Below, one piece after another: positions 347 to 57,948 of a DNA stretch of 64,000 nucleotides (position 1 is the stretch's first letter; each line of letters starts with the position of its first letter). This stretch comes from Pseudodesulfovibrio indicus (GTDB taxonomy: Bacteria; Desulfobacterota; Desulfovibrionia; Desulfovibrionales; Desulfovibrionaceae): the NCBI RefSeq assembly GCF_001563225.1, contig NZ_CP014206.1:3513486-3577485 (forward strand), in the 5' to 3' direction. A program made the position numbers and the translations under genes. The notes below the pieces were generated by a model. It ran no database searches, was not told where the DNA came from, and was given only the letters and a program-made list of their open reading frames with translations.

Positions 347-2023
347 CTACTCCGTCAGGTTGTTTTCAATAAAATCGCCCACATGGCGATACTTCTCGAA
401 CAGCACCCGGTAGCGGGCGGCGCTCGCCGGGTCGGGGCTGTACACGGTGTCGAAACCGCTGCCCATGGCCTTCTGCGCTTCCATCACCGAGGGGAACAGA
501 CCGGCGGCGGTCGCGGCGAACATGGCCGCCCCGAGGGCTACCGTCTGCTCGGATTTCGCCACCTTGATGTCCATGTCCAGGACGTCGGCCAGGACCTGCA
601 TGACGAACGGCGCCTTCTTGGGCACGCCGCCGATGGCGATGACCTCCTTGATGGGGACCCCTTCCTCGCGGAACCGCTCCACGATCAGACGGGCACCATA
701 GGCGGTGGCTTCCACCAGCGCCCTGAAGATTCGGGGGGCGTCGCTGCCCAGATTCAGGCCGCACAACGCGCCCTTGAGCGCCTGGTTGGCAAAGGGCGTC
801 CGGCGTCCGTTGTGCCAGTCCACGGCCAGTTCGGCGGTCTCGCCGGGCGGGATGGCGGCCGCGGCCTCGCTCAAGGCGGGGATCAGCCTGTCGGCCAGCG
901 TCTGTTCCAGGGCCGCAGCCGCGTCGGCATCGAGGCCGGGCTGTTCGCCCAACAGGGTCAGGGGCCACAGGAGAAGCTGCTTGAACCAGGCGTAGATGTC
1001 GCCGAAAGCCGATTGCCCGGCCTCCAGGCCGATCATGCCCGGCAGAACGGACCCGTCCACCTGGCCGCAGATTCCCTTCACCAGGGTATCGCCCAGCTCG
1101 TCGGAGGGGGCCAGCAGCACGTCGCACGTCGACGTCCCGATGATCTTGACCAGGCTGTAGGGCGCTATTTCGCCGCCCACGGCTCCCATGTGCGCGTCGA
1201 ATGCGCCGACGCCCACGGCGATGCCGGGCCGCAGTCCAAGCCGCCCGGCCCATTCGTCGCTCAGGCCGCCCGCCTTGAGGTCGGCGGTATGGGTCTCCCG
1301 GTACAACCGCTCGCGCAGACCGGCCAGAAGCGGGTCCAGCGAGGCCAGGAACGTTTCGTCGGGCAGGCCGTCCCACAGCTCGTTCCACATGGCCTTGTGT
1401 CCGGCGGCACACCGGCTGCGCTTCATCGCTGCGGGGTCGGTCACGCCGGTCAGCACCGCGGGAATCCAGTCGCAATGCTCCACCCAGGACCAGGCGGCAT
1501 CGCGGACGGCTTCATCCTCGCGGAGCGTGTGCAGGATTTTGGACCAGAACCATTCGGATGAATACACCCCGCCGCTGTAACGGGTGAAGTCCTCACCGCC
1601 CCATTCCTTGGCGTGCCTGTTGATCTCCGCCGCTTCGGCAATGGCCGTGTGATCCTTCCAGAGTATGAACATCCCGTTGGGATTTTCCGCGAACTCCGGG
1701 CGAAGCGCCAAGGCGACGCCTTGCTTGTCCACGGCGACCGGGGTGGACCCGGTCGTGTCCACGCTGATGCCCGCGACCTTGGAGGCGGCACCCTTGGGTC
1801 CGCTCGCCAGGGCTCCTTTCACGGCCCCTTCCAGCCCTTCGAGATAATCCAGCGGATGTTGCCTGAAACGGTTCACCCGCGCGTCGCAATACATTCCCTT
1901 TGACCAGCGGGGATAGTAAAAGACATGGGACGAGACCTCGGTGCCGGTGGCCGTGTCCACGAGAACCGCCCGCACCGAATCCGTGCCGTAATCGAGTCCC
2001 AGGACATACTTCGAATCGCTCAT
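347..2023 (-). CDS. araB: ribulokinase (FGGY carbohydrate kinase)
   Basis: 558 aa; N-term LGLDYGTDSVRAV (FGGY motif), length and overall similarity to AraB; GGAGG RBS upstream of ATG at 2023. Confidence 0.9.
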   Translation of the reverse strand: MSDSKYVLGLDYGTDSVRAVLVDTATGTEVSSHVFYYPRWSKGMYCDARVNRFRQHPLDYLEGLEGAVKGALASGPKGAASKVAGISVDTTGSTPVAVDKQGVALALRPEFAENPNGMFILWKDHTAIAEAAEINRHAKEWGGEDFTRYSGGVYSSEWFWSKILHTLREDEAVRDAAWSWVEHCDWIPAVLTGVTDPAAMKRSRCAAGHKAMWNELWDGLPDETFLASLDPLLAGLRERLYRETHTADLKAGGLSDEWAGRLGLRPGIAVGVGAFDAHMGAVGGEIAPYSLVKIIGTSTCDVLLAPSDELGDTLVKGICGQVDGSVLPGMIGLEAGQSAFGDIYAWFKQLLLWPLTLLGEQPGLDADAAAALEQTLADRLIPALSEAAAAIPPGETAELAVDWHNGRRTPFANQALKGALCGLNLGSDAPRIFRALVEATAYGARLIVERFREEGVPIKEVIAIGGVPKKAPFVMQVLADVLDMDIKVAKSEQTVALGAAMFAATAAGLFPSVMEAQKAMGSGFDTVYSPDPASAARYRVLFEKYRHVGDFIENNLTE

Positions 2024-2047: not shown

Positions 2048-3529
2048 CTATTTGTAATAGACTTCATTGGCCCGAATCTCGCCCTTGAAAGCCCGGATAT
2101 CGGTGTTCCGGTCAATTTCCAGCATCTCGACGTCCATCATCTCCGCGAAGTCGCGCAGATGCTCGACGGTCACGCTCTGGCTGAACCCGGAGTGGTGCGC
2201 GCCGCCGCCGAGAATCCAGGCTGTCGCCGAGACCTTGAGGTTCGGCTCCGGACGCCACAGGGCGCGCGCCACCGGCAGCTTGGGCAGATCGCTGGGCGTG
2301 TCGACCACCTCCACGGGGTTGACGAGCATGCGGAACCGGTTGCCCATGTCCACGATGGTGGCGTTCAGGGCGGCTCCCTTCCTGGTGGAGAAGACCAGCC
2401 TGGCCGGGTCGTCCTTGCCGCCGATGGACAGGGGGTGCAGCTCCAGCGAGGGCTTGCCCCCGGCGATGGACGGACACACTTCCAGCATGTGCGCGCCGAG
2501 CACCAGGGCCTCGCCGTTTTCCGGCAGGTGGTAGGTGTAATCCTCCATGAACGATGTGCCGCCCTGCAATCCGGCTCCCATGACCTTCATGGAACGGACC
2601 AGCATGGCGGTCTTCCAGTCGCCCTCCGCACCGAACCCGTACCCGTCGGCCATGAGCCGCTGGCAGGCCAGGCCGGGGAGCTGGGCGAGGCCGTGCAAAT
2701 CCTCGAAGGTGGTGGTGAACGCCTTGAACCCGCCCTCCGCCAGGAACCGGCGCATGCCGACCTCGATGCGGGCCGCCTCGCGGATCATCGGGTCATCGGG
2801 CTTGGCGGTCAGCCGGGACACGTCGTAGGCCTGGAAATACTCGTCGACCATGCTCTTGATGTCCGCGTCGGAAACGGCCTTGACCCGAACGGCCAGGTCG
2901 CCCACGCCGAAGCCGTGGACCTCGTAACCGAACCGGATCTGGGCCTCCACCTTGTCGCCCTCGGTCACGGCCACGTCGCGCATGTTGTCGCCGAAACGGG
3001 CCACCTTGGCGCCGCGCGAATCCGCCACGGCGGCCGCCGCGCGCACCCAGACGCCGAGCTCGTCACGGACGTCCCGGTCCTGCCAATGCCCGACCACGAT
3101 CTTGCGGTTCAGGCGCAGGCGGGAGCAGATGAAGCCGAACTCGCGGTCGCCGTGGGCGGACTGGTTGAGATTCATGAAATCCATGTCGATGTCCGACCAG
3201 GGAATCTCGCGATTGTACTGTGTATGCAGATGGACGAAAGGCTTGTTCAGGGAGGAGAGTCCGGCGATCCACATCTTGGCCGGCGAGAACGTATGCATCC
3301 AGCAGATCAGCCCGATGCAGGCCTCTGCCGCATCGGCCTCCCGGCACACCTTGGCGATCTCATGAGACCGGGTGGCCACGATTTTGGGCACGATTTTCAC
3401 CGGCATCGCCTCGCTCAGGGCCTCGGCGATTTCCGCAGCGTTTCTCTCGACCTGTTTCAGGGTTTCCGGTCCATAGAGATGCTGACTGCCAGTCACGAAC
3501 CAAATCTCGAACTTGTCAAATGATATCAT
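2048..3529 (-). CDS. araA: L-arabinose isomerase
   Basis: [20 protein letters not shown]... is the canonical AraA N-terminus; the ORF in the track extends 25 codons upstream, but the start is probably at MISF (3529). Confidence 0.9.
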
Positions 3530-3740
3530 ACTTCTATGCCTCCTCCCGGACAGGGCTCGACCCAATGACGGCGTCGACGCGGGCCGGGTTTCGTTATCGT
3601 TCACGGTATGCCATATCTACATACCAACGCAAAATCATGTCAACCCTCGCACCACAATTGGACGGTTCGGCCCGGCTCCGTGCCGGAACGCCCCCGAACC
3701 GCTGTTTACAAACCGGCCTGAAGGCGGGTAATCAGAGGCC

Positions 3741-4787
3741 ATGACACAGCATCTGAGCCAGAAAAAGGTCACCATCAAGGACGTCGCCAGAGAGTGCAAC
3801 GTCTCCATCCAGACCGTTTCGCGCGTGTTGAACAACCGCAGCGACGTCTCCGATGCGACCCGCGACAAGGTCCAGGCGGTCATCGACGGGCTGGGCTACC
3901 AGCCGAGCATCATCGCCCGGGGCATGCGCAGGCAGAGCGACACCCTGGGCGTGATCATTTCCGGGCTCCGCTACACCGGCGTGGCCACGACCCTCAACGG
4001 CGTGGCCAGGGCCTCGGAGGAGCGGGGGTTCACCCTCATCCTCAAGGAAACGTCCTCCATGGACTGCCGCGACGTCCTGTCCTTCATCCATTCCCTGATG
4101 GCGCACCAGGTGCGCGGCATCATCTGCGCCGCCCCGCAAGTGGGCTCGAACTGGACCATCCTGCAACAATCCCTCCCGGCCAAGACCCCGCCGCTGGTCT
4201 TTCTCAAGGGCAACCCGCTGGCCGCGCCCGTGACCGTTTCCATCGACAACTATGCCGCGGGATACAAGATCACCCGGCACCTCATAGATCGGGGGTACAC
4301 CCGCATCGCCCACATCAACGGCCCGAGGGACTGGTGGGAATCCATCGAGCGGGAGCGCGGGTGGCGGCAGGCCCTGATCGAAGCCGGCTTGCCCGTCCAC
4401 GACCGGGCCGTGGTCGCCGGCGACTGGTCGCCCGCGTCCGGCAGGGAGAGCTACCTCCGCCTCCTGAAAGGCTACCCCGAAATGGACGCCGTATTCGCGG
4501 CCAACGACCAGATGGCGCTGGGCGTGCTGCACGAGGCCGGACTGCGCGGTGTGAACGTTCCCGAATCCTTGGGCGTCGCGGGCATGGACGACATCCCGGA
4601 GTCGGCGTTTTTCACCCCGGCGCTGACCACGATCCGGCAGAATTTCCACCAATTGGGCGACCTGGCGGTCCGCAAGCTCCTGTACCTTGCGGGCACCACT
4701 CCGGATGACGAATGCGTTGCCAAAGACACGATCATCATCCAGCCGGAGGTGATCGCGCGCCAATCCACCAACAGGAACGGAGAGTGA
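3741..4787 (+). CDS. LacI-family transcriptional regulator (HTH + periplasmic-binding-fold sugar sensor)
   Basis: N-term VTIKDVARECNVSIQTVSRVLNN (LacI HTH); 348 aa; divergent from araABD. Confidence 0.9.
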   Translation: MTQHLSQKKVTIKDVARECNVSIQTVSRVLNNRSDVSDATRDKVQAVIDGLGYQPSIIARGMRRQSDTLGVIISGLRYTGVATTLNGVARASEERGFTLILKETSSMDCRDVLSFIHSLMAHQVRGIICAAPQVGSNWTILQQSLPAKTPPLVFLKGNPLAAPVTVSIDNYAAGYKITRHLIDRGYTRIAHINGPRDWWESIERERGWRQALIEAGLPVHDRAVVAGDWSPASGRESYLRLLKGYPEMDAVFAANDQMALGVLHEAGLRGVNVPESLGVAGMDDIPESAFFTPALTTIRQNFHQLGDLAVRKLLYLAGTTPDDECVAKDTIIIQPEVIARQSTNRNGE

Positions 4788-4789
4788 GC

Positions 4790-5452
4790 ATGATGGAGAA
4801 CGGCAGACGCATCGGCGTCCTGTGGGACATGGACGGCGTCATCGTGGACAGCGGCGAAGCCCATTACGTTTCCTGGCAGGCGTCCCTGAAACGATACGGC
4901 CTTCCCTGCACCCGGGAGTTCTTTGACGAGACCTTCGGCATGAACAACAGGGGGATCATCTCCCTGCTCCTGAAACGCGACGCGACCGACGAGGAAGTGG
5001 ACGCCATCGGCGGTCTGAAGGAAGAGCTTTTTCGGCAGGACATCAAGGGCAACATCGCCCCCCTGCCCGGCGTGGTCGAATGGCTCGAGCGGTTCAAACG
5101 GGCGGGATTTCCCCAGGCCGTGGCCTCTTCGGCGCCTCAGGAAAACATCGACGCCATCATCGACGGCATCGGTCTGCGTGCGTCGTTTCAGGCGCTGGTC
5201 TCCGGCTCCGCGCTGCCCGGCAAGCCGGACCCGAGCACGTTCCTGTTGGCCGCCGAGCGCCTGGGCCTGCCGCCCTCCGAATGCCTGGTCATCGAAGACG
5301 CCAAGGTCGGCGTCCAGGCGGCCAAGGCGGCGGGCATGCGGTGCCTGGCCGTGTGCACCACGCACCGGGCGGAAGAACTGGCGAAAGCGGACCTGGTCCT
5401 CAAGGGGCTGGCCGACCTGACCTCCGACGCCGTGGGAACGCTGTTCCCCTGA
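4790..5452 (+). CDS. HAD-superfamily hydrolase (beta-phosphoglucomutase-like)
   Basis: Start MMENGRR with DMDGVIVDS motif I; stop of LacI gene immediately upstream. Confidence 0.8.
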   Translation: MMENGRRIGVLWDMDGVIVDSGEAHYVSWQASLKRYGLPCTREFFDETFGMNNRGIISLLLKRDATDEEVDAIGGLKEELFRQDIKGNIAPLPGVVEWLERFKRAGFPQAVASSAPQENIDAIIDGIGLRASFQALVSGSALPGKPDPSTFLLAAERLGLPPSECLVIEDAKVGVQAAKAAGMRCLAVCTTHRAEELAKADLVLKGLADLTSDAVGTLFP

Positions 5453-5466
5453 TTCAGCACCCCGTC

Positions 5467-7338
5467 TCAGTCGCGCTCATCCGGCTCGCACGGGACGCCG
5501 GGCAGGAGGATGGTGAACTCGCAGCCTCCCGCCTCCCTGTTCTTGACCTCGATGGAGCCGTTGTACTTGCTGATGATGCCGTAGCTCACCGAAAGCCCGA
5601 GCCCGAGATTGGTGTCCTTGCCGAGCTTTGACGAATAGAACGGCAGAAAGATGTTGCTCGGGTCCTCGTCGAGGATGCCGCACCCGTCGTCCATGAACCG
5701 GATGCGGGCCAGGGGCTTTCCGCCCTCCTCCACCATGTCGGTTTCGATGCGGATGGTTCCCGCGTCGCCGGCCGCCTCGAAGCTGTTTCTGAAGAGATTT
5801 AGCAGGACCTGCTTGATCTCGTTCTTTCTGGCCTCGACCACCACAGGACAATCGGGCGGCGAAAACCGGATCTCGATGTTGCGCCGCCGCGCGTCGATCC
5901 GAAGCAGGGCGATGATGGACAGCAGCAGCTCGCTGATGTCGATCTCCTCGATGACCACACGGGTTCGGTCGGAAAACGAGATCAGGTTGCTGACGATCTG
6001 CTTGATGTCCTCCAACTCTTCCTCGATGAGGTCGATGGTCTCGGCCACCTGCGTCTTTTCGAGGTTGAACTTCAGATAATTCAGGTGATTATAAATAATC
6101 TCCAAGGGGTTGTTGATCTCGTGGGCAACGCCCGCCGAGAGGATGCCCACCGAGGCCAGCTTCTCGGCCATGGTCAATTGCTGGCGCAGCGTTTCCTGCC
6201 GGGAGATGTCCTCGACGATGAGGATGTTGCCGATGAAGAACGCGCCGTCGCCGATGGGCAGGATCTTGATGTCCGCCGTGGTCTCCTTTTCACCGACCGT
6301 GGTGGGCACGGCATAAAACGCCGCCTCCCGCTGCTCCGCGAACGCGCCCTTGATCAGGGGCAGCGCTTTGCCGTCGCCCAGGGGAAACAGGTCGTCGATG
6401 CGGAGTTTCCTGTAGTCGGCATCGCCGAGCTCGAAATAATTCCGGCCATTGTCGTTGATCATCTTGATGCGGTTGTCGTTGTCCACGACCACAAGGTTGA
6501 TCGGCAGCTTTTGCAGGATGGCCTCGTTGTAGCGCAGGAGCTGATAGAACTCGCGCGAGTCCCCGGCCTTGGCATGCTCGGCCAGCTGGCTGTAGCACAG
6601 CTTGATCAGGTTGACCTTGTCCACGTTCTCGATGGATTCGGTGACGATGGTCTTGCCGTTGCGCAGGATGGTCACCCTGTCGGCCAGCGACGCCACCTCG
6701 TCGATGCCGTGGGCAAGGCAGAGGATGGCCGTGCCCTCCTCCTTCAAGGCGGCCAGGACGTGAAGCACCTTGTCCAGGTCCTCGGCGGACAGCTGCTCCA
6801 GGATGGCGTCCAGCACCAGAAGGCGCGGCTTGCGCAGGACGCTCCGCAGGAAATAGACGATGAGCTGCTCCGACGGACGCAATTCCTGAACCAGGGTCTC
6901 CGGGGAAAAATCGAAGCCGTACTTCTTCAGGATGTCCCCGCATTCCCGGTGCCACGCCCGTTTCTTGAAGAAAAACGGTTTGCTCTTGATCAGGTCGGGT
7001 ATGAGCAGATTGTCGGTCACGGTCAGGCAGTTGATAAGATGGGTCTCCTGGCAGACCAGCTCGATCTTGAGTTTCCTCGCCTCCCGCTGACTCAGGTTGG
7101 GGTATGCGGTGCCGTTGTAGAACCGCCGCCCGGAGTTGAGCCGGAGCAGCCCCGCCGTGAGGTTGGCCAGAGAGGACTTGCCCGCGCCATGATCGCCGAT
7201 GACCACATGGAATTCCCCGGGGCCGATGTCGAGGTTCACATTGCGCAGGGCATGGATGTGCCCCACGCCGCAGGCCACGTCTTCCAGCCTGAGGACCGCT
7301 TCACCCGGACCGTTCTCAGGCATATTGGTCGATCTCAT
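5467..7338 (-). CDS. Cytoplasmic sensor histidine kinase with N-terminal ABC-transporter-type ATPase domain (ABC_tran-PAS-HisKA-HATPase_c)
   Basis: Walker A GDHGAGKSSL, ABC signature LRPSEQL, Walker B LLVLD; then PAS, H-box HEINNPL, G-boxes GLGLSVSYGI; alternative start at MPENG (7323) gives ATGCCTGA overlap with upstream response regulator. Confidence 0.85.
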   Translation of the reverse strand: MRSTNMPENGPGEAVLRLEDVACGVGHIHALRNVNLDIGPGEFHVVIGDHGAGKSSLANLTAGLLRLNSGRRFYNGTAYPNLSQREARKLKIELVCQETHLINCLTVTDNLLIPDLIKSKPFFFKKRAWHRECGDILKKYGFDFSPETLVQELRPSEQLIVYFLRSVLRKPRLLVLDAILEQLSAEDLDKVLHVLAALKEEGTAILCLAHGIDEVASLADRVTILRNGKTIVTESIENVDKVNLIKLCYSQLAEHAKAGDSREFYQLLRYNEAILQKLPINLVVVDNDNRIKMINDNGRNYFELGDADYRKLRIDDLFPLGDGKALPLIKGAFAEQREAAFYAVPTTVGEKETTADIKILPIGDGAFFIGNILIVEDISRQETLRQQLTMAEKLASVGILSAGVAHEINNPLEIIYNHLNYLKFNLEKTQVAETIDLIEEELEDIKQIVSNLISFSDRTRVVIEEIDISELLLSIIALLRIDARRRNIEIRFSPPDCPVVVEARKNEIKQVLLNLFRNSFEAAGDAGTIRIETDMVEEGGKPLARIRFMDDGCGILDEDPSNIFLPFYSSKLGKDTNLGLGLSVSYGIISKYNGSIEVKNREAGGCEFTILLPGVPCEPDERD

Positions 7339-8653
7339 ATTTCTTCAGCTTGTTGTACAGCGTCTTGCGGCTGATGTTCAGGACCATGGCGGCCTTACGC
7401 TTGTTGTTCCCGGTTTCCTTGAGCGTGCGCAGGATAAGCCGCTTTTCGGCCTCCATGAGCATGGACCCCCGCCCTCCCTGCCGCTTCCTCTCCATCAGCG
7501 GGGTGGGCAGGTCTTCGAGATTGATGCAGTCGGCCACGGCCAGAGTGGCCGCATAGTTGATGGTGTTCTTCAATTCCCTGACATTGCCGGGCCAGGCGTA
7601 TTCCATGAACCGCTCCATGACCTCCCCGGACACGGAACGGACTTCCTTGGCGTTCTCCGCCGAGAACTGGGCCAGGAAATACTCGGTCAGCAGGGGGATG
7701 TCGTCGCGGCGCTCCCTCAGCGGCGGCAGCTTGAGGATGGCCGCGTTCAGCCGATAGTACAGGTCCTGCCGGAACCGTTTCTCGCTGATGAGCTTGTCCA
7801 GGTCCCTGTTGGTGGAGGTGATGAGCCGAATGTCCACCTTGATGGATTCCGTCCCGCCGATGCGGCGGATCTCCTGATTCTGGAGCGCCCGCAGGATCTT
7901 GGCCTGGGTGGACATGGACATGTCGCCGATCTCGTCCAGGTAGAGCGTCGTATCCCCCGCCCGCTCGATGATGCCGATGAACCGGCTCTGCGCGCCGGTG
8001 TACGCGCCCTTCTCATGGCCGAACAACTCGTTGTCCAGCAGGCTGTCCGGGAAAGCTGCGCTGTTGACCGTGACCATCTTTTTCGAGGCCCGGAGCGAGT
8101 TGTTGTGGATGAGGTTGGCCAGCAGCTCCTTGCCGGTGCCGTTCTCTCCCAGAATGAGGACCGAGATGTTCGTGCCCGCCAGCTTCTTGGCCTTCTCGCA
8201 CACGGCCAGGACCTCGTCGTTGCCGGTCACGATGCTGCCGGAAAGCTCCACGATCCTGTCCCGCAGGGTCGAGTTCTCCTGCTCCAGCTCCCCGAGCTTG
8301 ATGGCGTTCTCCACGATCTTCAGCAGCTTGTTGAAATCGAGCGGTTTCTGGACATAGTCGTAGGCGCCGAGCTTGACCGAGGTCACGGCGGACTCGATGG
8401 AACCGAAGCCCGTGATCATGATGACCGGCAGCCCCGGATACCGCTCGACCATGTCCTTGAGCAAGGCCAGGCCGTCCTCTTCCCCCAACATGATGTCGAG
8501 GAGCACGACCCCCACGGAACCGCTTTCCAGCGCGCCGAACGCCCGGCGCGAATTGGGCGCCTCGTGCACGAGATATCCGAGTTGCTCGAAGTTGCGGGCC
8601 AGGCTGCTCGACAGCTTGAGGTTGTCGTCGACAATCAGAATTTCCTTTCCCAT
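7316..8653 (-). CDS. sigma-54-dependent response regulator (REC-AAA+-HTH, NtrC family)
   Basis: REC (ILIVDDN...D in LLDIMLGE), AAA+ GENGTGKE, ESELFGHEKGAYTGA, C-terminal HTH; start placed at MGKEIL (GGAGAAATGGG RBS context), the ORF in the track is longer. Confidence 0.9.
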   Translation of the reverse strand: MGKEILIVDDNLKLSSSLARNFEQLGYLVHEAPNSRRAFGALESGSVGVVLLDIMLGEEDGLALLKDMVERYPGLPVIMITGFGSIESAVTSVKLGAYDYVQKPLDFNKLLKIVENAIKLGELEQENSTLRDRIVELSGSIVTGNDEVLAVCEKAKKLAGTNISVLILGENGTGKELLANLIHNNSLRASKKMVTVNSAAFPDSLLDNELFGHEKGAYTGAQSRFIGIIERAGDTTLYLDEIGDMSMSTQAKILRALQNQEIRRIGGTESIKVDIRLITSTNRDLDKLISEKRFRQDLYYRLNAAILKLPPLRERRDDIPLLTEYFLAQFSAENAKEVRSVSGEVMERFMEYAWPGNVRELKNTINYAATLAVADCINLEDLPTPLMERKRQGGRGSMLMEAEKRLILRTLKETGNNKRKAAMVLNISRKTLYNKLKKYEIDQYA

Positions 8654-8689
8654 TTCTCCACCCTGTGCCGATTGATTCGTCTGAAGAAA

Positions 8690-8740
8690 GTGTGAACCTC
8701 GGATACACACTTTCACACCATGTGTGAAAATGTTACACAT
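8690..8740. promoter_or_regulatory. Cluster of inverted GTGTGAA / TTCACAC half-sites (putative regulator binding sites) in divergent promoter region
   Basis: aaGTGTGAAcctcggatacacacTTTCACACcatGTGTGAAaatgtTACACAttc seen directly; alternating-orientation 7-mers, CRP-like TGTGA..TCACA flavour. Confidence 0.35.
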
Positions 8741-9107
8741 TCGCCATATTACGTCAACGTTCACGGAACATCTTGAAAAACGGCATAACTTACCGAAATA
8801 AAAGCTCTAATCACCGAAAGGCGAGCTTGTCCGCCAGAGAGTGATCACTTTTATTACAATCACGTCAATGCTGACAAAAACGTCGGGAACCGGCTCCATT
8901 CAACGCATTGCGAACGGACCGCCCGCTTCGCCGGGTCCAACGTCGCGATTCGGTTCGATATTTGCTCTGACTTTATGACCCGTTGCGGCGTGATAAAGCG
9001 GAATTGCTGCTTCTATCTGCGAAGTGGTTGCCCCAGTCCCGGGCAGTTGATTCAGGGACTGTTGCCTAGAGGTAGGTTTGAGTGATTCAACATCATTTGG
9101 AGGTATT

Positions 9108-10097
9108 ATGAAAAACGTGGCTACTAAATTGATGATGATTTGTGCACTGGCGCTGGCGGTCGGGATGTTCCTCGCCGCTCCGGCTCTGGCCAAAGACAAG
9201 ATCGTGGTGGGCTTTTCCCAGATCGGCGCTGAAAGCGCCTGGCGCGTCGCCAACACGGAATCCATCACTTCCGAAGCGGCCAAGCGCCCCAACATCGAAC
9301 TGAAATTCTCCGACGCCCAGCAGAAGCAGGAAAACCAGATCAAGGCCATCCGCAACTTCATCGCCCAGGGCGTTGACGTCATCGCCTTTTCCCCGGTCGT
9401 CGAAACCGGCTGGACCCCGGTCCTGAAGGAAGCCAAGCGCGCCGGCATCCCCGTGATCCTGTCCGACCGCGCCGTTGACACCGAAGACGACACCCTGTGG
9501 GTCACCTTCATGGGCTCCGACTTCGTCGAGGAAGGACGCCGCTCCGCAAAATGGCTCGCCGAAAACTATGACCGGCTCAAGAACGCCGACAAGTCTTCCG
9601 ACGTCATCAACGTCGTGGAACTCCAGGGCACCGTCGGCTCCGCTCCGGCCATCGACCGCAAGACCGGTTTTGAAGAAGTCATGAAGAACTACCCCCAGTT
9701 CAAGGTCATCAAGTCCCAGTCCGGCGACTTCACCCGCTCCAAGGGCAAGGAAGTCATGGAAGCCTTCCTGAAGGCCGAAGGCGCCAAGATCGACGTGCTC
9801 TACGCCCACAATGACGACATGGCCATCGGCGCCATCCAGGCCATCGAGGAATTCGGCCTGAAGCCCGGCAAGGACATCATCATCGTGTCCATCGACGCCG
9901 TGCGCGGCGCATTCGAAGCCATGATCGAAGGCAAGCTCAACTGCACCGTCGAGTGCAGCCCCCTGCTCGGACCCCAGCTCTTCGACGCCGTTGAAGACCT
10001 CATGGCCGGCAAGACCCTGCCCAAGCGCATCGTGACCAACGAAGGCGTCTTCCCCCAGGAAGTCGCCGCCAAGGAACTGCCTAACCGCAAGTACTAG
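9108..10097 (+). CDS. Sugar ABC transporter periplasmic binding protein (YtfQ/galactofuranose-arabinose type)
   Basis: Signal peptide, KDKIVVGFSQIGAESAWRVANT; type-I PBP fold; GGAGG RBS. Confidence 0.9.
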   Translation: MKNVATKLMMICALALAVGMFLAAPALAKDKIVVGFSQIGAESAWRVANTESITSEAAKRPNIELKFSDAQQKQENQIKAIRNFIAQGVDVIAFSPVVETGWTPVLKEAKRAGIPVILSDRAVDTEDDTLWVTFMGSDFVEEGRRSAKWLAENYDRLKNADKSSDVINVVELQGTVGSAPAIDRKTGFEEVMKNYPQFKVIKSQSGDFTRSKGKEVMEAFLKAEGAKIDVLYAHNDDMAIGAIQAIEEFGLKPGKDIIIVSIDAVRGAFEAMIEGKLNCTVECSPLLGPQLFDAVEDLMAGKTLPKRIVTNEGVFPQEVAAKELPNRKY

Positions 10098-10227: not shown

Positions 10228-11751
10228 ATGTCGAACAACCAGGATGCGATCCTTCAAATCAAGGGCCTCAGCAAGAGTTTCCCCGGCGTAAAGGCCTTGC
10301 AGGACGTGGATTTCACGCTGCGCCGCGGGGAAATTCACGCCTTGATGGGCCAAAACGGCGCGGGGAAATCAACGCTGATCAAGGTCATGACCGGATTGTA
10401 CAAGAAGGACACCGGGGAGATGCTCCTCGAAGGGCAGCCCTTCGAGTTCGGTTCGCCCGAGCAGGCCCCCAAGCACGGCATCAGCACCGTGTACCAGGAG
10501 GTCAATCTGATCCCCCACCTGTCGGTGGCGGAGAACATCTACCTCGGCCGCCAACCGAAGCGCTTCGGGGCCATCGACTGGCCCACCCTCAACCGGCGGG
10601 CCGAGGAAGCGGTCAAGAAACTCGATCTGGACATCGACGTGACCCAGCCGGTGTCCTCCTACTCCATCGCCATCCAGCAGTTGGTGGCCATCATCCGCGC
10701 CCTGGACATCCAGGCCCGCATCCTGATCCTGGACGAGCCGACTTCGAGCCTGGACGCCGCCGAGACCGAACGTCTCTTCACCGTGCTCAAGAAACTCAAG
10801 TCCCAGGGCATCGCCATCGTCTTCGTGACGCACTTCCTCGGCCAGGTTTACGAAATTTCCGATACCATCACCGTCTTGCGAAACGGCAAACTCGTCGGCG
10901 AGAAACCGGTGGCGGAGCTGCCCAAGCTGCAGCTGATCGAGATGATGCTCGGCAAGAGCATCGAATCCCTCCAGAAAGCGGACAAAAAAGCGCCCAAGGA
11001 CTGCGGCACCGGGAACAACCTCTGCTTCCTGCGAGCCCAGGGATTGGGCCGCAAGGGGGCCATGTCGCCCTTCAACCTGGTGATCCGCAAGGGAGAGGTC
11101 ATGGGGCTGGCCGGCCTGCTCGGCTCCGGGCGGACGGAAACGGCCCGCCTGCTGTTCGGCGTGGACAAGGCGCAGCAGGGCAACCTGTACATTAACGACA
11201 AGAGCGAGGTCTTGAACTCCCCCCGCAAGGCCATCGCCCATCGTTTCGGCCTCTGCCCGGAAGACCGCAAATCGGAGGGGATCATCGAAGACCTTTCGGT
11301 CCGCGAAAACATCATCCTCGCCCTGCAGGCGCGGTCGGGAATCTTCAACAAGCTCTCCCCCAAGCGCCAGAGCGAGATCGTTGACAAGTATATCAAGATG
11401 TTGGACATCAAGGCATCGAGCCAGAACCAGAAGGTCGGCGATCTCAGCGGCGGCAACCAGCAGAAAGTTATCGTGGCCCGCTGGCTCGCCTCGGACCCGG
11501 AGTTCCTGATCCTCGACGAGCCCACCCGGGGCATCGATGTCGGCGCCAAGGCGGAGATCGAAAAACTGATCGTCGAACTCAGCCGGGCCGGAATGGCCGT
11601 GCTGTTCATATCGAGTGAGCTGGAAGAAATCATATCCTGCGCGGACAGGGTCGCCGTGCTGAGAGACCGCGAAGTCGTCGATGAGATCTCCGGCGACGAG
11701 ATAGAGGAATCCAAGATCATGAAGATTATCGCGCAGGGAGGAAAACAATGA
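10228..11751 (+). CDS. Sugar ABC transporter ATP-binding protein, duplicated ATPase domains (YtfR-like)
   Basis: Two Walker A/signature sets (GQNGAGKST..LSGGNQQK); 507 aa. Confidence 0.9.
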   Translation: MSNNQDAILQIKGLSKSFPGVKALQDVDFTLRRGEIHALMGQNGAGKSTLIKVMTGLYKKDTGEMLLEGQPFEFGSPEQAPKHGISTVYQEVNLIPHLSVAENIYLGRQPKRFGAIDWPTLNRRAEEAVKKLDLDIDVTQPVSSYSIAIQQLVAIIRALDIQARILILDEPTSSLDAAETERLFTVLKKLKSQGIAIVFVTHFLGQVYEISDTITVLRNGKLVGEKPVAELPKLQLIEMMLGKSIESLQKADKKAPKDCGTGNNLCFLRAQGLGRKGAMSPFNLVIRKGEVMGLAGLLGSGRTETARLLFGVDKAQQGNLYINDKSEVLNSPRKAIAHRFGLCPEDRKSEGIIEDLSVRENIILALQARSGIFNKLSPKRQSEIVDKYIKMLDIKASSQNQKVGDLSGGNQQKVIVARWLASDPEFLILDEPTRGIDVGAKAEIEKLIVELSRAGMAVLFISSELEEIISCADRVAVLRDREVVDEISGDEIEESKIMKIIAQGGKQ

Positions 11752-12793
11752 GCCTGAAGCCGTCCTTTCTGCAGAACGAGGCCACGGCCAAGCTGATCTG
11801 GCCGCTTGTCGCCCTTTCCGCAATCATCATATTCAACATCCTGTTCACGCCCGGCTTTTTCCACATCGAGATCAAGGACGGGCACCTGTTCGGCAGCCTT
11901 ATCGACATCCTCAACCGAGGCGCGCCGGTCATGCTCGTGTCCATCGGCATGACGCTGGTGTTCGCCACCGGCGGCGTGGACCTGTCCGTGGGCGCGGTCA
12001 TCGCCATCTCCGGGGCCATCGCCGCCCATCTCATCCGGCCGGACTACGTCAAGGGCGTCATCGAATACGGCGAGCTGACCCCCCTGTTCCAGGTCATCGC
12101 CATCCCGCTGATCGTCTCGTTGGCGGCGGGATTGTGGAACGGCGTGCTCGTGGCCTACGTCGGCGTCCAGCCCATCATCGCCACGCTCATCCTGATGGTG
12201 GCCGGGCGCGGCATCGCCCAGCTGGTCACCGAAGGCCAGATCCTGGTCTTCATCCATGAACCGTTTCAATACATCGGTGGCGGCTTTCTCTTCGGCATTC
12301 CGTTCCCCATCATCCTGGTGCTGGTCGCCCTGGCGGCGACCTACCTGCTGACTCGACGAACGGCGCTCGGCCTGTTCATCGAAGCCATCGGGGCCAACCC
12401 CAAGGCCAGCCTGTACATGGGCATACGGGCCAAGGTGATCAAGGTCGCCGTCTACATGTTCTGCGCCCTGTGCGCGGGCATCGCGGGGCTGATCATCTGC
12501 TCGGACATCAAAGCGGCCGACGCCAACAACGCGGGATTGTTTCTCGAACTGGACGCCATCGCCGCCGTCATCATCGGCGGCACGATGTGGGGCGGCCGTT
12601 TCACCGTGGCGGGCTCGATCATCGGCGCGCTGATCATCCAGTCCCTGACCACGACCATCCTGACGCGCGGCATCGCTCCTGAAATAACCCTGGTATTCAA
12701 GGCCGTGGTCATCATCTGCGTGGCCCTGATCCAATCCGAGACCTTCAGAAACATCCTGGCAGGCCGCCTGATGAAAAAGGAGGCCGGAAAATA

Positions 12794-12794
<1 letters not shown>
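11748..12794 (+). CDS. Sugar ABC transporter permease (YtfT-like)
   Basis: Polytopic membrane protein, ATGA overlap with ATPase gene. Confidence 0.9.
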
Positions 12795-13816
<1,022 letters not shown>

Positions 13817-13834: not shown

Positions 13835-14845
13835 ATGAAAACCCTGCGTCTTTACGGCCCCGGCGACATTCGGCTCCTGGACGAGCCCGAACCGAGTCCC
13901 GCGTCCGGCGAAGCCCTGCTGCAAATCGCCTCGGTGGGCGTCTGCGGCTCGGACCTCACCTGGTTCGTCTCCTCGGGCATCGGCTCGGCCAGACTGGAGC
14001 GCCCGCTCATTCTGGGCCATGAATTCTCCGCCGTCGCCCTGACGGGACAATTCGCGGGGAAGCGCGTGGCCGTGGACCCGGCCATCCCGTGCAACCGCTG
14101 CCGCCATTGCATCGAGGGCAACCCCAACTTCTGCGAAGCCACGCGCTTCGCCGGACACGCCCCGGACGATGGCGCATTGCGTGAAAGGATGGCCTGGCCT
14201 GAAGAGCTCCTGCACCCGCTCCCCGACGAACTGTCCTTTGAGGACGGCGTGATGCTGGAACCGCTCGGCGTGGCCCTCCATGCCATGGACCTCGGCAAGA
14301 TCCGGGTGGGCGACAAGGTGGGCGTCTTCGGCTGCGGCCCCATCGGCCTGCTCATGGTGCAACTGGCCCTGGCGTCGGGCGCCGAGCGGGTGCTGGCCAC
14401 CGACCCTCTGGAGCACCGCCGCAATCTGGCCGGGACCTTCGGCGCCCAGCCGAGTTCCGCACGGAACGGCGAAGAGGTCGCTCCGCTCATCCGGTCGGAC
14501 TACAAGGGCGGCCTGGACGTGGCCTTTGAAATCGCGGGCGAGGATGATGCCGTGGAGGCCGCGATCCGCAGCCTCCGCCCGGGCGGCAAGCTCATCCTCG
14601 GCGGCATCCCCCGGGACGACAGGACCTCATTCTGCGCCTCCGAAGCCCGCCGCAAAGGGCTGACCATCAAGCTCGTGCGCCGCATGAAGCATACCTACCC
14701 GCGAGCCATCGCCTTGACCATGGCGGGAACGGTTCGGCTCCAGCCGCTGGTGACGCACGTCTTCCCCCTGGAAAAGGCTGACGAAGCATTCGCGACCGCC
14801 GTCTCCAGATCGGGACTGAAAGTCTGCCTCCGCCCGACAACGTAA
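13835..14845 (+). CDS. Zn-dependent alcohol/polyol dehydrogenase (MDR family, sorbitol/threonine dehydrogenase-like)
   Basis: GHEFSAV, VGVCGSDL zinc motif, GxGxxG GCGPIGL; last gene of transporter operon. Confidence 0.9.
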   Translation: MKTLRLYGPGDIRLLDEPEPSPASGEALLQIASVGVCGSDLTWFVSSGIGSARLERPLILGHEFSAVALTGQFAGKRVAVDPAIPCNRCRHCIEGNPNFCEATRFAGHAPDDGALRERMAWPEELLHPLPDELSFEDGVMLEPLGVALHAMDLGKIRVGDKVGVFGCGPIGLLMVQLALASGAERVLATDPLEHRRNLAGTFGAQPSSARNGEEVAPLIRSDYKGGLDVAFEIAGEDDAVEAAIRSLRPGGKLILGGIPRDDRTSFCASEARRKGLTIKLVRRMKHTYPRAIALTMAGTVRLQPLVTHVFPLEKADEAFATAVSRSGLKVCLRPTT

Positions 14846-15872: not shown

Positions 15873-15964
15873 TCCGGACCGGGTTGACAGCGCGACAAGA
15901 CCGCGCCAGAACAGGGCGGCCGTCGAGGCCCGTCTTTTGCAAAGCCCCCGAAAAAGGAGCGGAC

Positions 15965-16942
15965 ATGCGATACATCCACAACCCGGTCACGGACCCCGCC
16001 TTCAACCTGGCAGCCGAGGAATGGCTGCTGACCCGCTCGGACGAGGACGTCTTCATGCTCTGGCGCAACCGGCCCGCGGTCATCGTCGGGCGGAACCAGA
16101 ACACCCTGGCCGAGATCGACGAAGCCTTCACCCGGACGCGCGGCATCCCCGTGGTCCGCCGCCTGAGCGGAGGCGGTGCCGTGTTCCACGACCTGGGGAA
16201 CATCAACTTCACCTTCATCACCCGGGGCAACCCCTCGCAGGGGCTGGACTTCGAGCGGTTCACCGCGCCCATCCAGCAGGCCCTCGGGGCCATGGGGGTG
16301 GCGTGCGAGTTTTCCGGCCGCAACGACCTGCTCATAGACGGAAAGAAGTTCTCCGGCAATGCCCAACATTTCCATGCCGGGCGCATCCTGCACCACGGCA
16401 CCCTGCTCTTCGCCTCGGACATGGCCGACCTGTCCGGCGCGCTGCGCACCGACCCCGAGAAGTACCGCGACAAGGCGGTGAAGAGCGTCCGCTCGCGGGT
16501 GACCAACATCTCCAGCCATCTGCCCGCGCCCATGGAAGTGACCGCCTTCATCAAGGCGCTCATGGACCACGTCTCCGGCCACACGCCCATGGACGACATG
16601 GTCTTGAGCGCCGAGGAGCAGGCGTCCATCGAGGCGCTGGCCGCCGCGCGCTACCGCACCTGGGAGTGGAACTTCGGCTCCTCGCCCGCCTACAACTTCT
16701 CCCGCCGGACCCGCACCCCCGGCGGACTGCTGGACGTGAACATGCAGGTCAAGAAGGGGCTGATCGTCAAGGCGCGGCTGTTCGGCGACTATTTCGGGGT
16801 CCGGGACATCGACCCCCTGGAGCGGCGCATCGAGGGTTGCGCCCACGAGCGAACGGCCCTTGAGGAGCGGCTTTCCGGCCTGCCGCTCGGCGAATACCTG
16901 AACGGCGTGACCCTGCCCGTCCTGCTGGACTGCCTGTTCTGA
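15965..16942 (+). CDS. lplA: lipoate-protein ligase A
   Basis: Start MRYIHNP...AAEEWLL...RRLSGGGAVFHD (LplA catalytic motif); the ORF in the track starts earlier with weak context; GGAGCGGAC ATG. Confidence 0.85.
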   Translation: MRYIHNPVTDPAFNLAAEEWLLTRSDEDVFMLWRNRPAVIVGRNQNTLAEIDEAFTRTRGIPVVRRLSGGGAVFHDLGNINFTFITRGNPSQGLDFERFTAPIQQALGAMGVACEFSGRNDLLIDGKKFSGNAQHFHAGRILHHGTLLFASDMADLSGALRTDPEKYRDKAVKSVRSRVTNISSHLPAPMEVTAFIKALMDHVSGHTPMDDMVLSAEEQASIEALAAARYRTWEWNFGSSPAYNFSRRTRTPGGLLDVNMQVKKGLIVKARLFGDYFGVRDIDPLERRIEGCAHERTALEERLSGLPLGEYLNGVTLPVLLDCLF

Positions 16943-20357: not shown

Positions 20358-21317
20358 CTAGGCGTAGACGTCTTCCATCAGGGCGCTGACCGGAGGCATG
20401 GGGCTCTCCTTGGCGAAGGCCACGGCGGCCTCCACGTCGGCGACGATGCGCTCCTTGATGTTCTCCGCTTCCTTCTTGGTCAGGGTCTTGCTCTCCAGGA
20501 GCTTGGCCTCGAAGCGGGGCAGCGGGTCCTTGGCCATCCACTCCTCCAGTTCCTCGGTGCAGCGGTAGGTGCAGGCGTCGCCCTCGAAATGGCCGCGCCA
20601 GCGGTAGGTCTTGCACTCCACCAGGGAGGGACCCTGGCCCTTGCGGGCGCGCTTGACGGCCTCGGTCACGGCCTCGTGCACGGCCAGGACGTCGTTGCCG
20701 TCCACCACCACGCCGGGCATGTCGTAGGCGGCGGCGCGGTCGGCGATGTCGACCACGGCCATGGACTTGCACTGCGGGCAGGATATGCCGTAGCCGTTGT
20801 TCTCATTGACGAAGACCAGGGGAAGCTTCCAGGCGCTGGCCATGTTCAGGGCCTCCTGGGTGGTGCCCTGGTTGGACGCGCCGTCGCCGAAGAAGCACAC
20901 GGCCACGTCGTCGGATTTCTTGTATTTGGCGGCCAGGGCTGCGCCCACGGCCAGGGGACCGCCGCCGCCCACGATGCCGTTGGCGCCCAGGATGCCGAGG
21001 TGCATGTCGGCGATGTGCATGGAACCGCCCTTGCCCTTGCAGTAGCCGGTCTGGCGGCCGAAGATCTCGGCCATCATCAGCTTCAGGTCGCCGCCCTTGG
21101 CCAGCAGGTGGCCGTGGCCGCGGTGGGTGGAGGTGATCATGTCCGTGTCGGTCAGGGCCGCGCAGGTCCCGGTGGCCACGGCTTCCTCGCCGAGATAGAG
21201 GTGCACGAAGCCGGGAATCTCGCCCGCGGCGAAGAATTCCTGAAGCTTCTGCTCGAACAGCCTGATCCTGTTCATGGTTTCGTACATGTGAATCAATGTC
21301 TTCTTGCTGAGAGCCAT
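20358..21317 (-). CDS. acoA: acetoin/pyruvate dehydrogenase E1 component alpha subunit (TPP-binding)
   Basis: 319 aa, TPP motif GDGASNQG...NN. Confidence 0.9.
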   Translation of the reverse strand: MALSKKTLIHMYETMNRIRLFEQKLQEFFAAGEIPGFVHLYLGEEAVATGTCAALTDTDMITSTHRGHGHLLAKGGDLKLMMAEIFGRQTGYCKGKGGSMHIADMHLGILGANGIVGGGGPLAVGAALAAKYKKSDDVAVCFFGDGASNQGTTQEALNMASAWKLPLVFVNENNGYGISCPQCKSMAVVDIADRAAAYDMPGVVVDGNDVLAVHEAVTEAVKRARKGQGPSLVECKTYRWRGHFEGDACTYRCTEELEEWMAKDPLPRFEAKLLESKTLTKKEAENIKERIVADVEAAVAFAKESPMPPVSALMEDVYA

Positions 21318-23115: not shown

Positions 23116-23155
23116 AACCAAGTCCTCCTGGTTGGTTTCGAATGTCACCGGAGGA

Positions 23156-23172
23156 TTGCAACGGGAGTGCCA
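23156..23172 (-). promoter_or_regulatory. sigma-54 (-24/-12) promoter of aco operon
   Basis: Reverse complement reads TGGCACtcccgTTGCAa = exact TGGCAC-N5-TTGC consensus, about 40 nt upstream of acoC start; AcoR-type activator encoded divergently. Confidence 0.7.
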
Positions 23173-23432
23173 AGGCGGTTATTGCCAGTATTTCAGTAAG
23201 ATGGGCCAATGATGAATTCCGGAACCCCGCCGTCTGTTCGGGCCTGGAACACCCGGGCCGGAATGGCCCTCAAAAATGTCGTTCGGCTCCATCAGACTGA
23301 TTTCACTGGAAGAACAACCGTCATCCGACCTTTGCACTGTTCGAAATATGAACACTTGACATGGCATTGAGGTTGGAGGAGACCGTAAGGGCGGCACAAA
23401 GAGGGTTATTAATGTGCTCCTGGAGGTTGCAC

Positions 23433-34810: not shown

Positions 34811-35071
34811 TCCCGCCTTGCCGCGCCGCCTCGCGGCTGCCCATAATTGTCATTTCCTCTCAGGAAATTTTCTCAATTTTCCCATATTTGTCACACACCC
34901 CTTTAAACCCCTTTCCCCGGTTGCCCATAGGCACCCTTCCAAACCTCAGTCTTTTCAACATATTCCCGGAGAATTTTCCCTACACGAAAGTTTTGGCACG
35001 AGAGCTGCTAAAATCAGTCAAGTTTTTAGTCGCGACCGCGCAGCCAACTCAACCGTATTAGGAGAACAAGA

Positions 35072-43255: not shown

Positions 43256-43513
43256 ACGCCCGGTTTTGTCTCGAACCATTTTACAATCCCGTTAAATACC
43301 CTTGATCCGAACACCAGATAATTTCAAAAATGTAACCTTTCCGGACCGCGCGAGCCGCGCTTCCGGGCGGGCTTCACATCACAGGGGCCGGGGTTTGCTG
43401 GCAATAAGCCGGGCCGCGTCTTCTGGCACTGCCATTGCACCTTCCACCGGGCCGGGACGCCATCGTCACGGCCGCGCGACATTCCATACCATCAACCGCA
43501 AGAGAGGATTTTA

Positions 43514-44506: not shown

Positions 44507-44567
44507 ACGAACCCTCACGGCGGGCCGCTTCCCCTTGTCGGGGGAGCGGCCCGTTTTCCGGAGCTCC

Positions 44568-47146: not shown

Positions 47147-47147
47147 C

Positions 47148-54730: not shown

Positions 54731-57948
<3,218 letters not shown>

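Follow-up and report, generated by a model that had tools for sequence, protein, structure and literature searches.

What does a histidine kinase sense when its input module is an ATPase domain of the ATP-binding cassette (ABC) type, and which genes does it control? The question is raised by two adjacent minus-strand genes in a 64,000-nt stretch of Pseudodesulfovibrio indicus DNA (the window; all coordinates are window positions). They encode a sigma-54 type response regulator and a cytoplasmic kinase of the architecture NBD-PAS-HisKA-HATPase_c, where NBD is the nucleotide-binding domain. The two would form a two-component system that is strictly tied to one class of sugar importer and whose input domain appears not to have been described before: a literature search found no account of an NBD-fused kinase, of an ABC_tran plus HisKA architecture or of an NBD as a two-component input domain. 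We propose below that the pair would control the divergent importer operon next to it and, far more tentatively, that the kinase would take its signal from that importer.

The regulator gene (8653..7316, minus strand, 445 aa; Pfam, NCBIfam and translation) lies upstream of the kinase gene (7323..5467, minus strand, 618 aa; Pfam) in one operon. The products are 100% identical to WP_066806151.1 and to WP_066806149.1 / AMK12513.1 (also A0A126QR29), respectively. The TGA stop of the regulator (7318-7316) overlaps the ATG start of the kinase (7323-7321) within ATGCCTGA (7323-7316), which confirms the overlap from which a first-pass annotation of the stretch had concluded translational coupling. That annotation had placed the kinase at 5467..7338. 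Such an open reading frame (ORF) exists, from an alternative in-frame ATG at 7338, and is the longest (623 aa), but it is on the minus strand, and because of the ATGCCTGA overlap with the regulator stop the start is most likely at 7323 (MPEN..., the same as in the NCBI model).

Pfam resolves the kinase into ABC_tran at residues 31–177 (60.4 bits, E 3.7e-16; cut-off 25), PAS_4 at 276–381 (22.1 bits, just below the cut-off of 23.1), HisKA at 400–457 (33.2 bits; cut-off 26.9) and HATPase_c at 506–613 (65.2 bits; cut-off 26.4). The match of the N-terminus to the ABC_tran hidden Markov model, proposed as a check in the first-pass annotation, was thus obtained. A structural model built with AlphaFold2 (AF2) on 108 homologues (mean pLDDT 77) has a confident NBD (residues 10–235, pLDDT ~85–92), a disordered loop at 239–259, and a PAS fold followed by a long DHp hairpin and the catalytic domain. 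In a Foldseek search the N-terminal 230 residues superposed on the isolated ABC NBDs FtsE, LptB and MacB (TM 0.82–0.85, root-mean-square deviation 2.6–3.1 Å; for FtsE 8ymc and LptB 6mbn TM 0.85 and 2.6–2.8 Å, with FtsE at 2.6 Å), the rest of the protein resembled PAS-kinases such as YF1 and WalK, with the PAS matching 4gcz and 9a5d, and no PDB chain spanned both parts. On the minus strand the parts map to 6619..7296 (NBD of the CUT2 NBD1 type, residues 10–235; Pfam, NCBIfam, BLASTP, AF2 and Foldseek), 6484..6633 (NBD-to-PAS junction, residues 231–280, NVDKVNLIKLCYSQ ... EFYQLLRYNEAILQKLPINLVV; conservation profile, BLASTP and joint alignment), 6208..6498 (PAS domain, residues 276–372; sub-threshold Pfam match, AF2 fold and Foldseek) and 5488..6207 (kinase core with DHp/HisKA 373–452 and HATPase_c 453–612; Pfam and invariant columns). 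The kinase had been described as lacking a membrane or periplasmic sensor, and in agreement with this neither Kyte-Doolittle hydropathy nor the AF2 model gave a membrane segment or an N-terminal hydrophobic segment; the NBD begins at about residue 10. A transmembrane reading of the sole Kyte-Doolittle peak (1.90, residue 456) was rejected, as the peak lies inside the folded HATPase domain.

The domain set and the catalytic boxes of the kinase core are intact. In the kinase, the phospho-acceptor is His401 (codon 6121-6123), the N, G1, F and G2 boxes of HATPase_c are present, and H401, N509/N513, D545-G547-G549, F559-P561-F562 and G574-L575-G576 are invariant in 108 sequences, which places it among the class I (HisKA) kinases. 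The best NCBIfam match of this core is AtoS, at 186 bits far under the equivalog cut-off of 646, and databases label the protein ‘ATP-binding protein’, ‘histidine kinase’ or ‘ATP-binding cassette domain-containing protein’. The partner, previously taken for an NtrC-type activator, is one by its Pfam domains: REC at 5–114 (86.9 bits), the AAA+ sigma-54 interaction domain at 143–305 (Sigma54_activat, 211 bits) with its lid, and HTH_8 at 401–439 (46.4 bits). Its GAFTGA loop reads GAYTGA, a conservative variant, and it belongs with the NtrC-family enhancer-binding proteins; its best NCBIfam match, AtoC, scores 420 bits, under the cut-off of 714, so that it is not an AtoC equivalog.

Sequence comparisons give the input domain a specific type: the kinase NBD is of the CUT2 NBD1 type, with the tandem ATPases YtfR, AraG and RbsA most similar to it. 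Residues 8–250 match the N-terminal half of YtfR (NCBIfam, 123.5 bits, E 8e-36), followed by AlsA (121.9), AraG (116.6) and then GguA, LsrA, XylG, MglA and RbsA, and the best non-CUT2 family, FtsE, reaches 83.7 bits. These CUT2 matches cover model positions ~5–241 of ~500 and score at most 124 bits against cut-offs of 586–850; the kinase has a single NBD, where a CUT2 importer ATPase has two in ~500 aa. The domain is collinear with NBD1 of the window's own YtfR-like ATPase, 3 kb away (27% identity, 110 bits by BLASTP), and the alignment continues through the NBD1-NBD2 linker segment, to which the NBD-PAS junction is homologous; against NBD2 the alignment is weak (56 bits). A profile of the N-terminal 293 residues, searched against 1.84 billion representatives, returned the kinase family first and then 500-aa two-NBD proteins at their NBD1. 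When the family was aligned jointly with 60 cognate CUT2 NBD1 sequences, the two groups had in common GE-HA-x-G-E-x-GAGKS, IDP before the signature, I-[ST]-H-R-x-x-[DE] (an ISHR-like H-loop) and a degenerate NBD1 signature. The switches specific to the kinase family fall at dimer-facing elements: Asn to His in Walker A (His in 98% of the family, Asn in 100% of CUT2), DEPT to DEAL, and the D-loop to EKLS.

The NBD had been called complete, which does not hold. In the P. indicus kinase, Walker A (GDHGAGKS, residues 43–50, 7174-7197), the Q-loop Gln (Q92) and the H-loop His (H205) are present, but Walker B LLVLD (168–172) is followed by Ala173 in place of the catalytic Glu (LLVLD-A, 168–173, 6805-6822), the signature-like sequence is LRPSEQ (148–153), the D-loop reads EQLS rather than SALD, and the A-loop aromatic at position 20 is Val. 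Motif frequencies were counted over 108 family members. The residues that bind ATP, on whose presence in an alignment the first-pass annotation had let its proposal depend, are kept: G43 and K49 of Walker A and D172 of Walker B in 108/108, Q92 in 107/108, H45 in 106/108 and H205 in 97/108. By contrast, position 173 is Glu in 82/108 and Ala or Thr in 24/108, with the Glu lost in 26/108 (24%); position 20 is Tyr or Phe in 73/108 and Val in the window's clade; and the signature is L-x-L-S-[DE]-[RQK] family-wide (consensus L-x-L-S-D-R), LSGGQ occurring in none. Because Walker A, Walker B and the Q-loop are kept while the catalytic Glu is lost in about a quarter of the family, this pattern suggests that binding, not turnover, is under selection. 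Nucleotide binding in cis would thus be strongly selected, some members could do without hydrolysis, and the canonical NBD-NBD sandwich interface appears to have been remodelled. The junction to the PAS domain (231–245 and 258–280, around a poorly conserved loop at ~246–257) is among the best conserved segments of the family, which speaks for a mechanical coupling between NBD and kinase.

How widespread is this architecture, and does it keep the same company? A homologue search returned more than 120 proteins of ~615 aa, at 41–100% identity and all of the same architecture, from Desulfovibrionales, other Desulfobacterota, Spirochaetota, KSB3/Modulibacteria and Verrucomicrobia. Among the best 150 matches there were at least 72 family clusters at 50% identity, with members still found at rank 148. 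Full-length members have 585–646 aa, and no other output domain was seen. In the seven annotated contexts (42–75% identity) the arrangement is the same throughout, a regulator-kinase operon divergent from an importer operon that comprises a Peripla_BP_4 binding protein, a ~500-aa tandem ABC ATPase and one or two BPD_transp_2 permeases.

A larger survey of loci was made on genome and metagenome contigs, whose stop-to-stop ORFs were searched with the window's proteins. Scanning the genome contigs with the full-length alignment selected generic HisKA patterns, mostly in unrelated kinases, and gave family members only in L001–L006; the metagenome contigs were scanned for family loci with an alignment of the N-terminal part only. 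The survey yielded 96 kinase genes of the family, which fall into 80 clusters at 90% identity. Of the 66 informative clusters, 65 have the sigma-54 regulator immediately upstream of the kinase, and the lone exception is an artefact of ORF parsing. The importer was counted only where the upstream flank reached 6.5 kb or more, which left 44 clusters: every one has an adjacent CUT2 importer (tandem ATPase and permease), upstream in 43 (40 of them divergent) and downstream in one, and each associated importer has its own tandem ATPase. The co-occurrence check suggested in the first-pass annotation is therefore positive in 44/44 non-redundant informative loci.

More than one complete kinase-regulator-importer set is present in several genomes or contigs, such as one KSB3 genome (P0046 and P0059), L006, L112 and L162. 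Another such genome is GCA_040772385.1 (L084 and L085). At L006 (4944-11788), two regulator-kinase operons stand head to head, with a separate importer beside each. Since the binding proteins of distant family loci are only 23–32% identical to that of the window and the neighbouring catabolic genes differ, the family appears to serve importers of different specificity. Several distant loci have an additional BPD_transp_2 permease gene that is convergent with the kinase gene or overlaps its 3′ end (L086 11790-12857, L114 10326-11387, L122 4954-6054, L150 10376-11344); at L086 this gene ends a sugar-catabolic operon in which ATPase and binding-protein genes are lacking. Such a permease could be a second importer membrane subunit or one dedicated to the kinase.

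If the regulator acts on the importer operon, a sigma-54 promoter should lie in front of it. The first-pass annotation had pointed to 8654..9107 as a place for the target. A strict consensus search of this region (at most two mismatches) gave no site. A relaxed search for -24/-12 elements, with GG and GC fixed, at least 9/12 matches and comparison with orthologues, gave a single candidate facing the importer, CGGTTCGATATTTGCT at 8951..8966 on the plus strand (GG 8952-8953, TTGC 8962-8965), 141 nt before the binding-protein start at 9108. At 9/12 it is a weak match, which counts against the assignment, but its position is conserved: orthologues L081 and L088 have the identical 16-mer, and more distant loci have progressively better versions, e.g. 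TGGTACGCTATTTGCT and TGGCACGATTGTTGCA. An element towards the importer is present in 49/51 non-redundant divergent intergenic regions, mostly with 10–12/12 matches, and their density there, 1.19 per kb, compares with 0.158 per kb elsewhere in these loci.

When six orthologous intergenic regions were aligned, islands of conservation stood out from otherwise diverged sequence at the GG and TTGC of the -24/-12 element, at a palindrome and at a GTCAA box. The palindrome, TTTCACAC-CAT-GTGTGAAA at 8711..8729, is perfect, lies within a wider inverted repeat (8707-8733), is conserved in orthologous loci and is a putative upstream activating sequence. It has one match in the 64-kb window, where 0.11 would be expected by chance. 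Its distance from the -24/-12 element, ~220 nt on the upstream side, is usual for an enhancer site. Abutting it, a consensus scan gave a tentative sigma-70-like promoter at 8730..8757 on the minus strand (TTGACG, 16-nt spacer, TAACAT), whose -35 box (plus-strand GTCAA) does not vary among the orthologues. This promoter may drive the regulator-kinase operon, permitting autoregulation. The intergenic region also holds a 21-nt direct repeat (8879-8899 and 8939-8959, 76% identical, 60-nt spacing), the second copy of which overlaps the -24 element; it could be due to chance.

The regulator's target is thus likely to be the sigma-54 promoter ahead of the importer operon. We consider the following circuit well supported and very probably correct, because the catalytic boxes are intact, the genes overlap at ATGCCTGA, the synteny is strict, the -24/-12 elements recur and the palindrome is conserved. 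The soluble, dimeric class I kinase would phosphorylate its co-translated NtrC-type regulator; the regulator would bind the palindrome at 8711-8729 and activate the sigma-54 promoter at 8951-8966; and this promoter would drive the divergent ytfQRT-yjfF-like importer operon. P. indicus clearly uses sigma-54, since two perfect TGGCAC-N5-TTGCA promoters are present elsewhere in the window.

The importer operon begins with a YtfQ-like periplasmic sugar-binding protein (Peripla_BP_4; 9108..10097, plus strand; Pfam, and NCBIfam YtfQ at 384 bits, below the cut-off of 510), followed on the same strand by a YtfR-like tandem-NBD CUT2 ATPase (10228..11751; Pfam, and NCBIfam below the cut-off), a YtfT-like permease (BPD_transp_2; 11748-12794; likewise below the NCBIfam cut-off) and a YjfF-like permease (BPD_transp_2; 12794-13816; NCBIfam YjfF at 451 bits, above the cut-off of 363). 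The YtfQRT/YjfF type given to it in the first-pass annotation is therefore the one that NCBIfam returns. In the ATPase, NBD1 has consensus Walker A, Walker B and H-loop and a degenerate signature, YSIAIQQ, and NBD2 has LSGGNQQK, a degenerate Walker A (GSGRT) and no H-loop His. Searches of PDB sequences found no structure of a CUT2 permease or tandem ATPase. A Zn-dependent alcohol/polyol dehydrogenase gene (13835..14845, plus strand; Pfam) starts 19 nt past the last permease gene, follows the importer in orthologous loci L081 and L083 as well, and probably belongs to the operon. E. coli YtfQ binds galactofuranose and arabinofuranose. Given these ligands and the position of the YtfQ-like importer beside araA and araB, its substrate is likely to be L-arabinose or a related furanose or pentose.

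The circuit leaves the question of what the kinase senses. The paralogous sets within one genome call for a sugar-specific input and disfavour a global signal such as energy charge. The reading that we favour, although we give it somewhat less than an even chance, is sensing coupled to the transporter, in which the NBDs of the kinase dock on the importer permeases. The input module would have arisen from NBD1 of a tandem CUT2 ATPase; it would still bind nucleotide but would not be a competent ATPase alone. In the kinase dimer, the NBD pair would sit on the coupling helices of the permease dimer, either replacing the YtfR-like ATPase or taking turns with it. When the sugar-loaded binding protein docks, the kinase NBDs would close, and this movement, transmitted to the DHp helices by the conserved NBD-PAS junction, would switch the kinase on. 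Binding protein and permeases would then act as a transmembrane receptor, and the same cytoplasmic sensor design could serve many sugars.

Docking would let the binding protein supply sugar specificity at no cost. It would also account for the CUT2 NBD1 type of the NBD, for the constant presence of a CUT2 importer next to the family, for the retention of the nucleotide-binding and Q-loop residues although catalysis can be dispensed with, and for the conserved junction. For the synteny alone, the relation between regulator and target is already a sufficient explanation.

Several results weigh against docking. The importers keep a complete tandem ATPase of their own, so that transport does not require the kinase NBD, which would have to compete for the permeases. 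The elements of the NBD-NBD interface are remodelled (signature LSDR, DEPT to DEAL, D-loop to EKLS). In the window's clade the NBD evolves fastest (44–88% identity, compared with 82–93% for the binding protein) and has lost both the A-loop aromatic and the catalytic Glu. Between paralogues of the same genome, the PAS is the most or joint most divergent domain: in four pairs its identity is 30, 38, 28 and 47%, compared with 53, 45, 28 and 56% for the NBD, the domains being about equal in the pair at 28%. This is suggestive but not decisive, and the PAS could carry the sugar specificity. A mirror-tree and partial-Mantel test of co-evolution on 42 loci gave a partial r with the permease of 0.38 for the NBD and 0.37 for DHp, and the true-partner control, DHp with REC, gave only 0.18, so that the test favours neither docking nor its rivals.

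In the YtfQ-type clade (L081–L083, L088 and L092–L097 compared with the window), the permeases are 73–91% identical and the regulators 59–90%, alongside the values for binding protein and kinase NBD just given. This hints that the sensor may be under relaxed or diversifying selection there, or that the importer may have been exchanged horizontally.

The most explicit form of the docking reading, in which the two non-hydrolytic NBD1-type domains of the kinase dimer occupy the position of the ATPase under the permeases, is possible but on the doubtful side. In such a swap, docking of the sugar-loaded binding protein would be read directly as NBD closure and kinase activation.

The strongest rival needs no contact with the importer. 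The PAS domain would sense the sugar, or its first metabolite, in the cell after basal uptake, and the NBD pair would be a nucleotide clamp: ATP would join the kinase NBDs without hydrolysis, the ADP-bound or empty state would free them, and the kinase would be gated by the energy state. We hold this switch to be somewhat unlikely, though the motif counts fit it. The cis nucleotide-binding residues are invariant and the catalytic Glu dispensable, and degenerate sites that bind ATP without hydrolysis are well known in ABC proteins. The divergence of the PAS between paralogues is what one would expect of a pocket that determines specificity, the presence of a separate ATPase for each importer is in keeping with it, and so are the non-canonical dimer-interface motifs and the fast evolution of the NBD, relative to the transporter proteins, in the window's clade. 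The same interface, however, also speaks against a clamp, as the signature and D-loop are the elements that form an ATP sandwich. Moreover, ABC NBDs usually saturate far below the cellular ATP concentration and are hence poor energy sensors, and the most conserved PAS residues lie in strands that face DHp and not in an obviously variable pocket. The switch also leaves unexplained the CUT2 NBD1 type and the exclusive neighbourhood of CUT2 importers, both of which docking on the permeases would account for.

A further possibility is that the kinase NBD contacts the YtfR-like tandem ATPase instead of the permeases, for example by pairing with an open NBD site, and so reads its duty cycle, which would be true flux sensing. 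The strict synteny fits, and the sites look complementary, the kinase NBD having a good Walker A and no consensus signature and the only LSGGNQQK of the system being in NBD2 of the ATPase. We regard this as improbable, because the tethered NBD1 and NBD2 pair intramolecularly and leave little room for a third NBD, and because the residual Mantel correlations with ATPase NBD1 and NBD2 (0.30–0.35) are no better than those of DHp.

That the NBD is a relic of gene fusion kept as a scaffold for folding or dimerisation, with the input elsewhere (in the PAS or a partner protein), would suit the Pseudodesulfovibrio clade, where the NBD evolves faster than all other components and has lost the catalytic Glu and the A-loop aromatic, but this too has little chance of being right, because across several phyla and at 42% overall identity the Walker A Gly and Lys, the Walker B Asp (108/108) and the Q-loop Gln (107/108), the junction, and the uniform length (~600–645 aa) and architecture of the full-length members have all been kept, which points to purifying selection on nucleotide binding and mechanical coupling.

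What would follow depends on which reading is right. Two-component sensors are classed by their input domains, and here a family spanning at least four phyla combines kinase, sigma-54 regulator and a CUT2 importer with a sigma-54 promoter in unusually strict synteny. If the NBD reads the importer directly, the system would represent a new principle of transmembrane signalling, in which the coupling between membrane domain and NBD has phosphotransfer as its output instead of ATP hydrolysis. In the case of the swap under the permeases, any CUT2 importer could be wired to sigma-54 transcription in a generic, substrate-agnostic way, and the NBD would be the first ABC NBD to serve as input domain of a two-component sensor. 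Direct reading would also offer a natural modular handle for sugar biosensors and a soluble, dimeric reporter of NBD closure for CUT2 importers. On the conservative reading, a regulon and a promoter are assigned to ~100 genes annotated generically as ‘ATP-binding protein’, and the control of sugar uptake in Pseudodesulfovibrio, a sulfate reducer, would be explained.

On the other side of the kinase gene, the first-pass annotation had listed araABD and a LacI regulator. araB (347..2023, minus strand; NCBIfam, above its cut-off), araA (2048..3604, minus strand; Pfam / NCBIfam) and the LacI-type regulator gene (3741-4787) stand, but the supposed AraD at 4712..5452 (plus strand) is by Pfam and NCBIfam a HAD-family phosphatase, and the AraD identity was rejected. 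The longest ORF of the phosphatase overlaps the 3′ end of the LacI-type gene by 76 nt, its Pfam match begins only at residue 35, and the L082 orthologue has 220 aa; the true start is probably further downstream.

The two perfect sigma-54 promoters elsewhere in the window belong to other genes. One, TGGCACTCCCGTTGCA (23157-23172, minus strand), precedes a 2-oxoacid/acetoin dehydrogenase operon on the minus strand (E2 21772-23148, E1 20358-21317), from which an AcoR-like activator of the domain order GAF-PAS-Sigma54_activat-HTH_8 (23361-25478, plus strand) diverges. The other, TGGCACTGCCATTGCA (43424-43439, plus strand), is 75 nt upstream of a Bmp/PnrA-type ABC importer, which consists of a binding protein (43514-44506), a tandem ATPase (44535-46106) and two permeases (46097-48089) and is followed by an amidohydrolase (48106-49371); the palindrome of the kinase-regulator system is absent at this locus. 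A sigma-54-like site with one mismatch, TGGCACGAGAGCTGCT, is at 34994-35009 (plus strand). Further genes of the window are a lipoate-protein ligase gene at 15884-16942 and a ~1000-aa ORF with a histidine-kinase core at 54886-57945 (plus strand), which surfaced with the kinase as query. A literature search on P. indicus and on Desulfovibrio sigma-54 regulons returned nothing relevant.

How does the system compare with known ones? Among the functionally nearest is XylFII-LytS-YesN, a two-component system beside the CUT2-type importer xylFGH, which it controls; with LuxPQ, TorTS and ChvE-VirA it is among the binding-protein-dependent sensor kinases (PMC8050422). The likeness is that the two-component genes adjoin a sugar importer and that a Peripla_BP_4 binding protein gives the sugar specificity, as it would here if the kinase docks on the permeases. 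Kinases of that type, however, are membrane proteins with a periplasmic domain and a dedicated, transport-inactive binding protein, whereas the P. indicus kinase is wholly cytoplasmic. The only binding-protein gene of this system in the window is the first gene of the importer operon, with no second, dedicated one, although some related loci have further importer sets. The output differs as well, being a sigma-54 activator in P. indicus and an AraC-type regulator in the XylFII-LytS-YesN type.

BceRS-BceAB, likewise among the nearest in function, shares the concept. There, a kinase without a ligand-binding domain of its own takes its signal from the neighbouring ABC transporter and induces that transporter (PMC4513084, PMC10314905), so that, as in the docking reading, a ligand-blind kinase reads an adjacent transporter. 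The sensing parts are not homologous: BceS senses within the membrane, contacts the MacB/FtsX-type BceB through transmembrane helices and has no NBD, whereas the P. indicus kinase has no transmembrane segment. BceAB works as a pump for export or target protection and has an OmpR-type regulator; the P. indicus system has a BPD_transp_2 / Peripla_BP_4 importer of the CUT2 class and a sigma-54 regulator. With neither a membrane kinase nor a dedicated sensor binding protein nor an FtsX-type permease, it fits neither the Bce modules nor the XylFII-LytS-YesN type.

By its downstream parts the system resembles AtoS-AtoC, NtrB-NtrC and ZraS-ZraR, with which it shares the PAS-HisKA-HATPase core, the REC-AAA+-HTH_8 regulator and the logic of an upstream activating sequence with a -24/-12 promoter. 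AtoS is a membrane protein, however, and AtoS, NtrB and ZraS all lack an NBD input. By its upstream part it resembles the CUT2 tandem ATPases (YtfR, RbsA, AraG, XylG, MglA, AlsA; TC 3.A.1.2), with whose NBD1 and post-NBD linker the first 250 residues of the kinase are collinear; unlike them, it has PAS-HisKA-HATPase instead of NBD2 and is encoded with a response regulator, outside the transporter operon. By homology the kinase is a chimera that joins a CUT2 NBD1 to an AtoS/NtrB-like PAS-kinase, and its partner is an AtoC/NtrC-like activator. Relay of transporter state through a nucleotide-binding subunit has precedents in MalK-MalT and PstB-PhoU-PhoR, where that subunit of the importer informs a regulator or kinase. 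MalK and PstB, however, are the working ATPases of their transporters and act in trans, whereas P. indicus has a separate, apparently catalytically compromised NBD that is fused to the kinase in cis.

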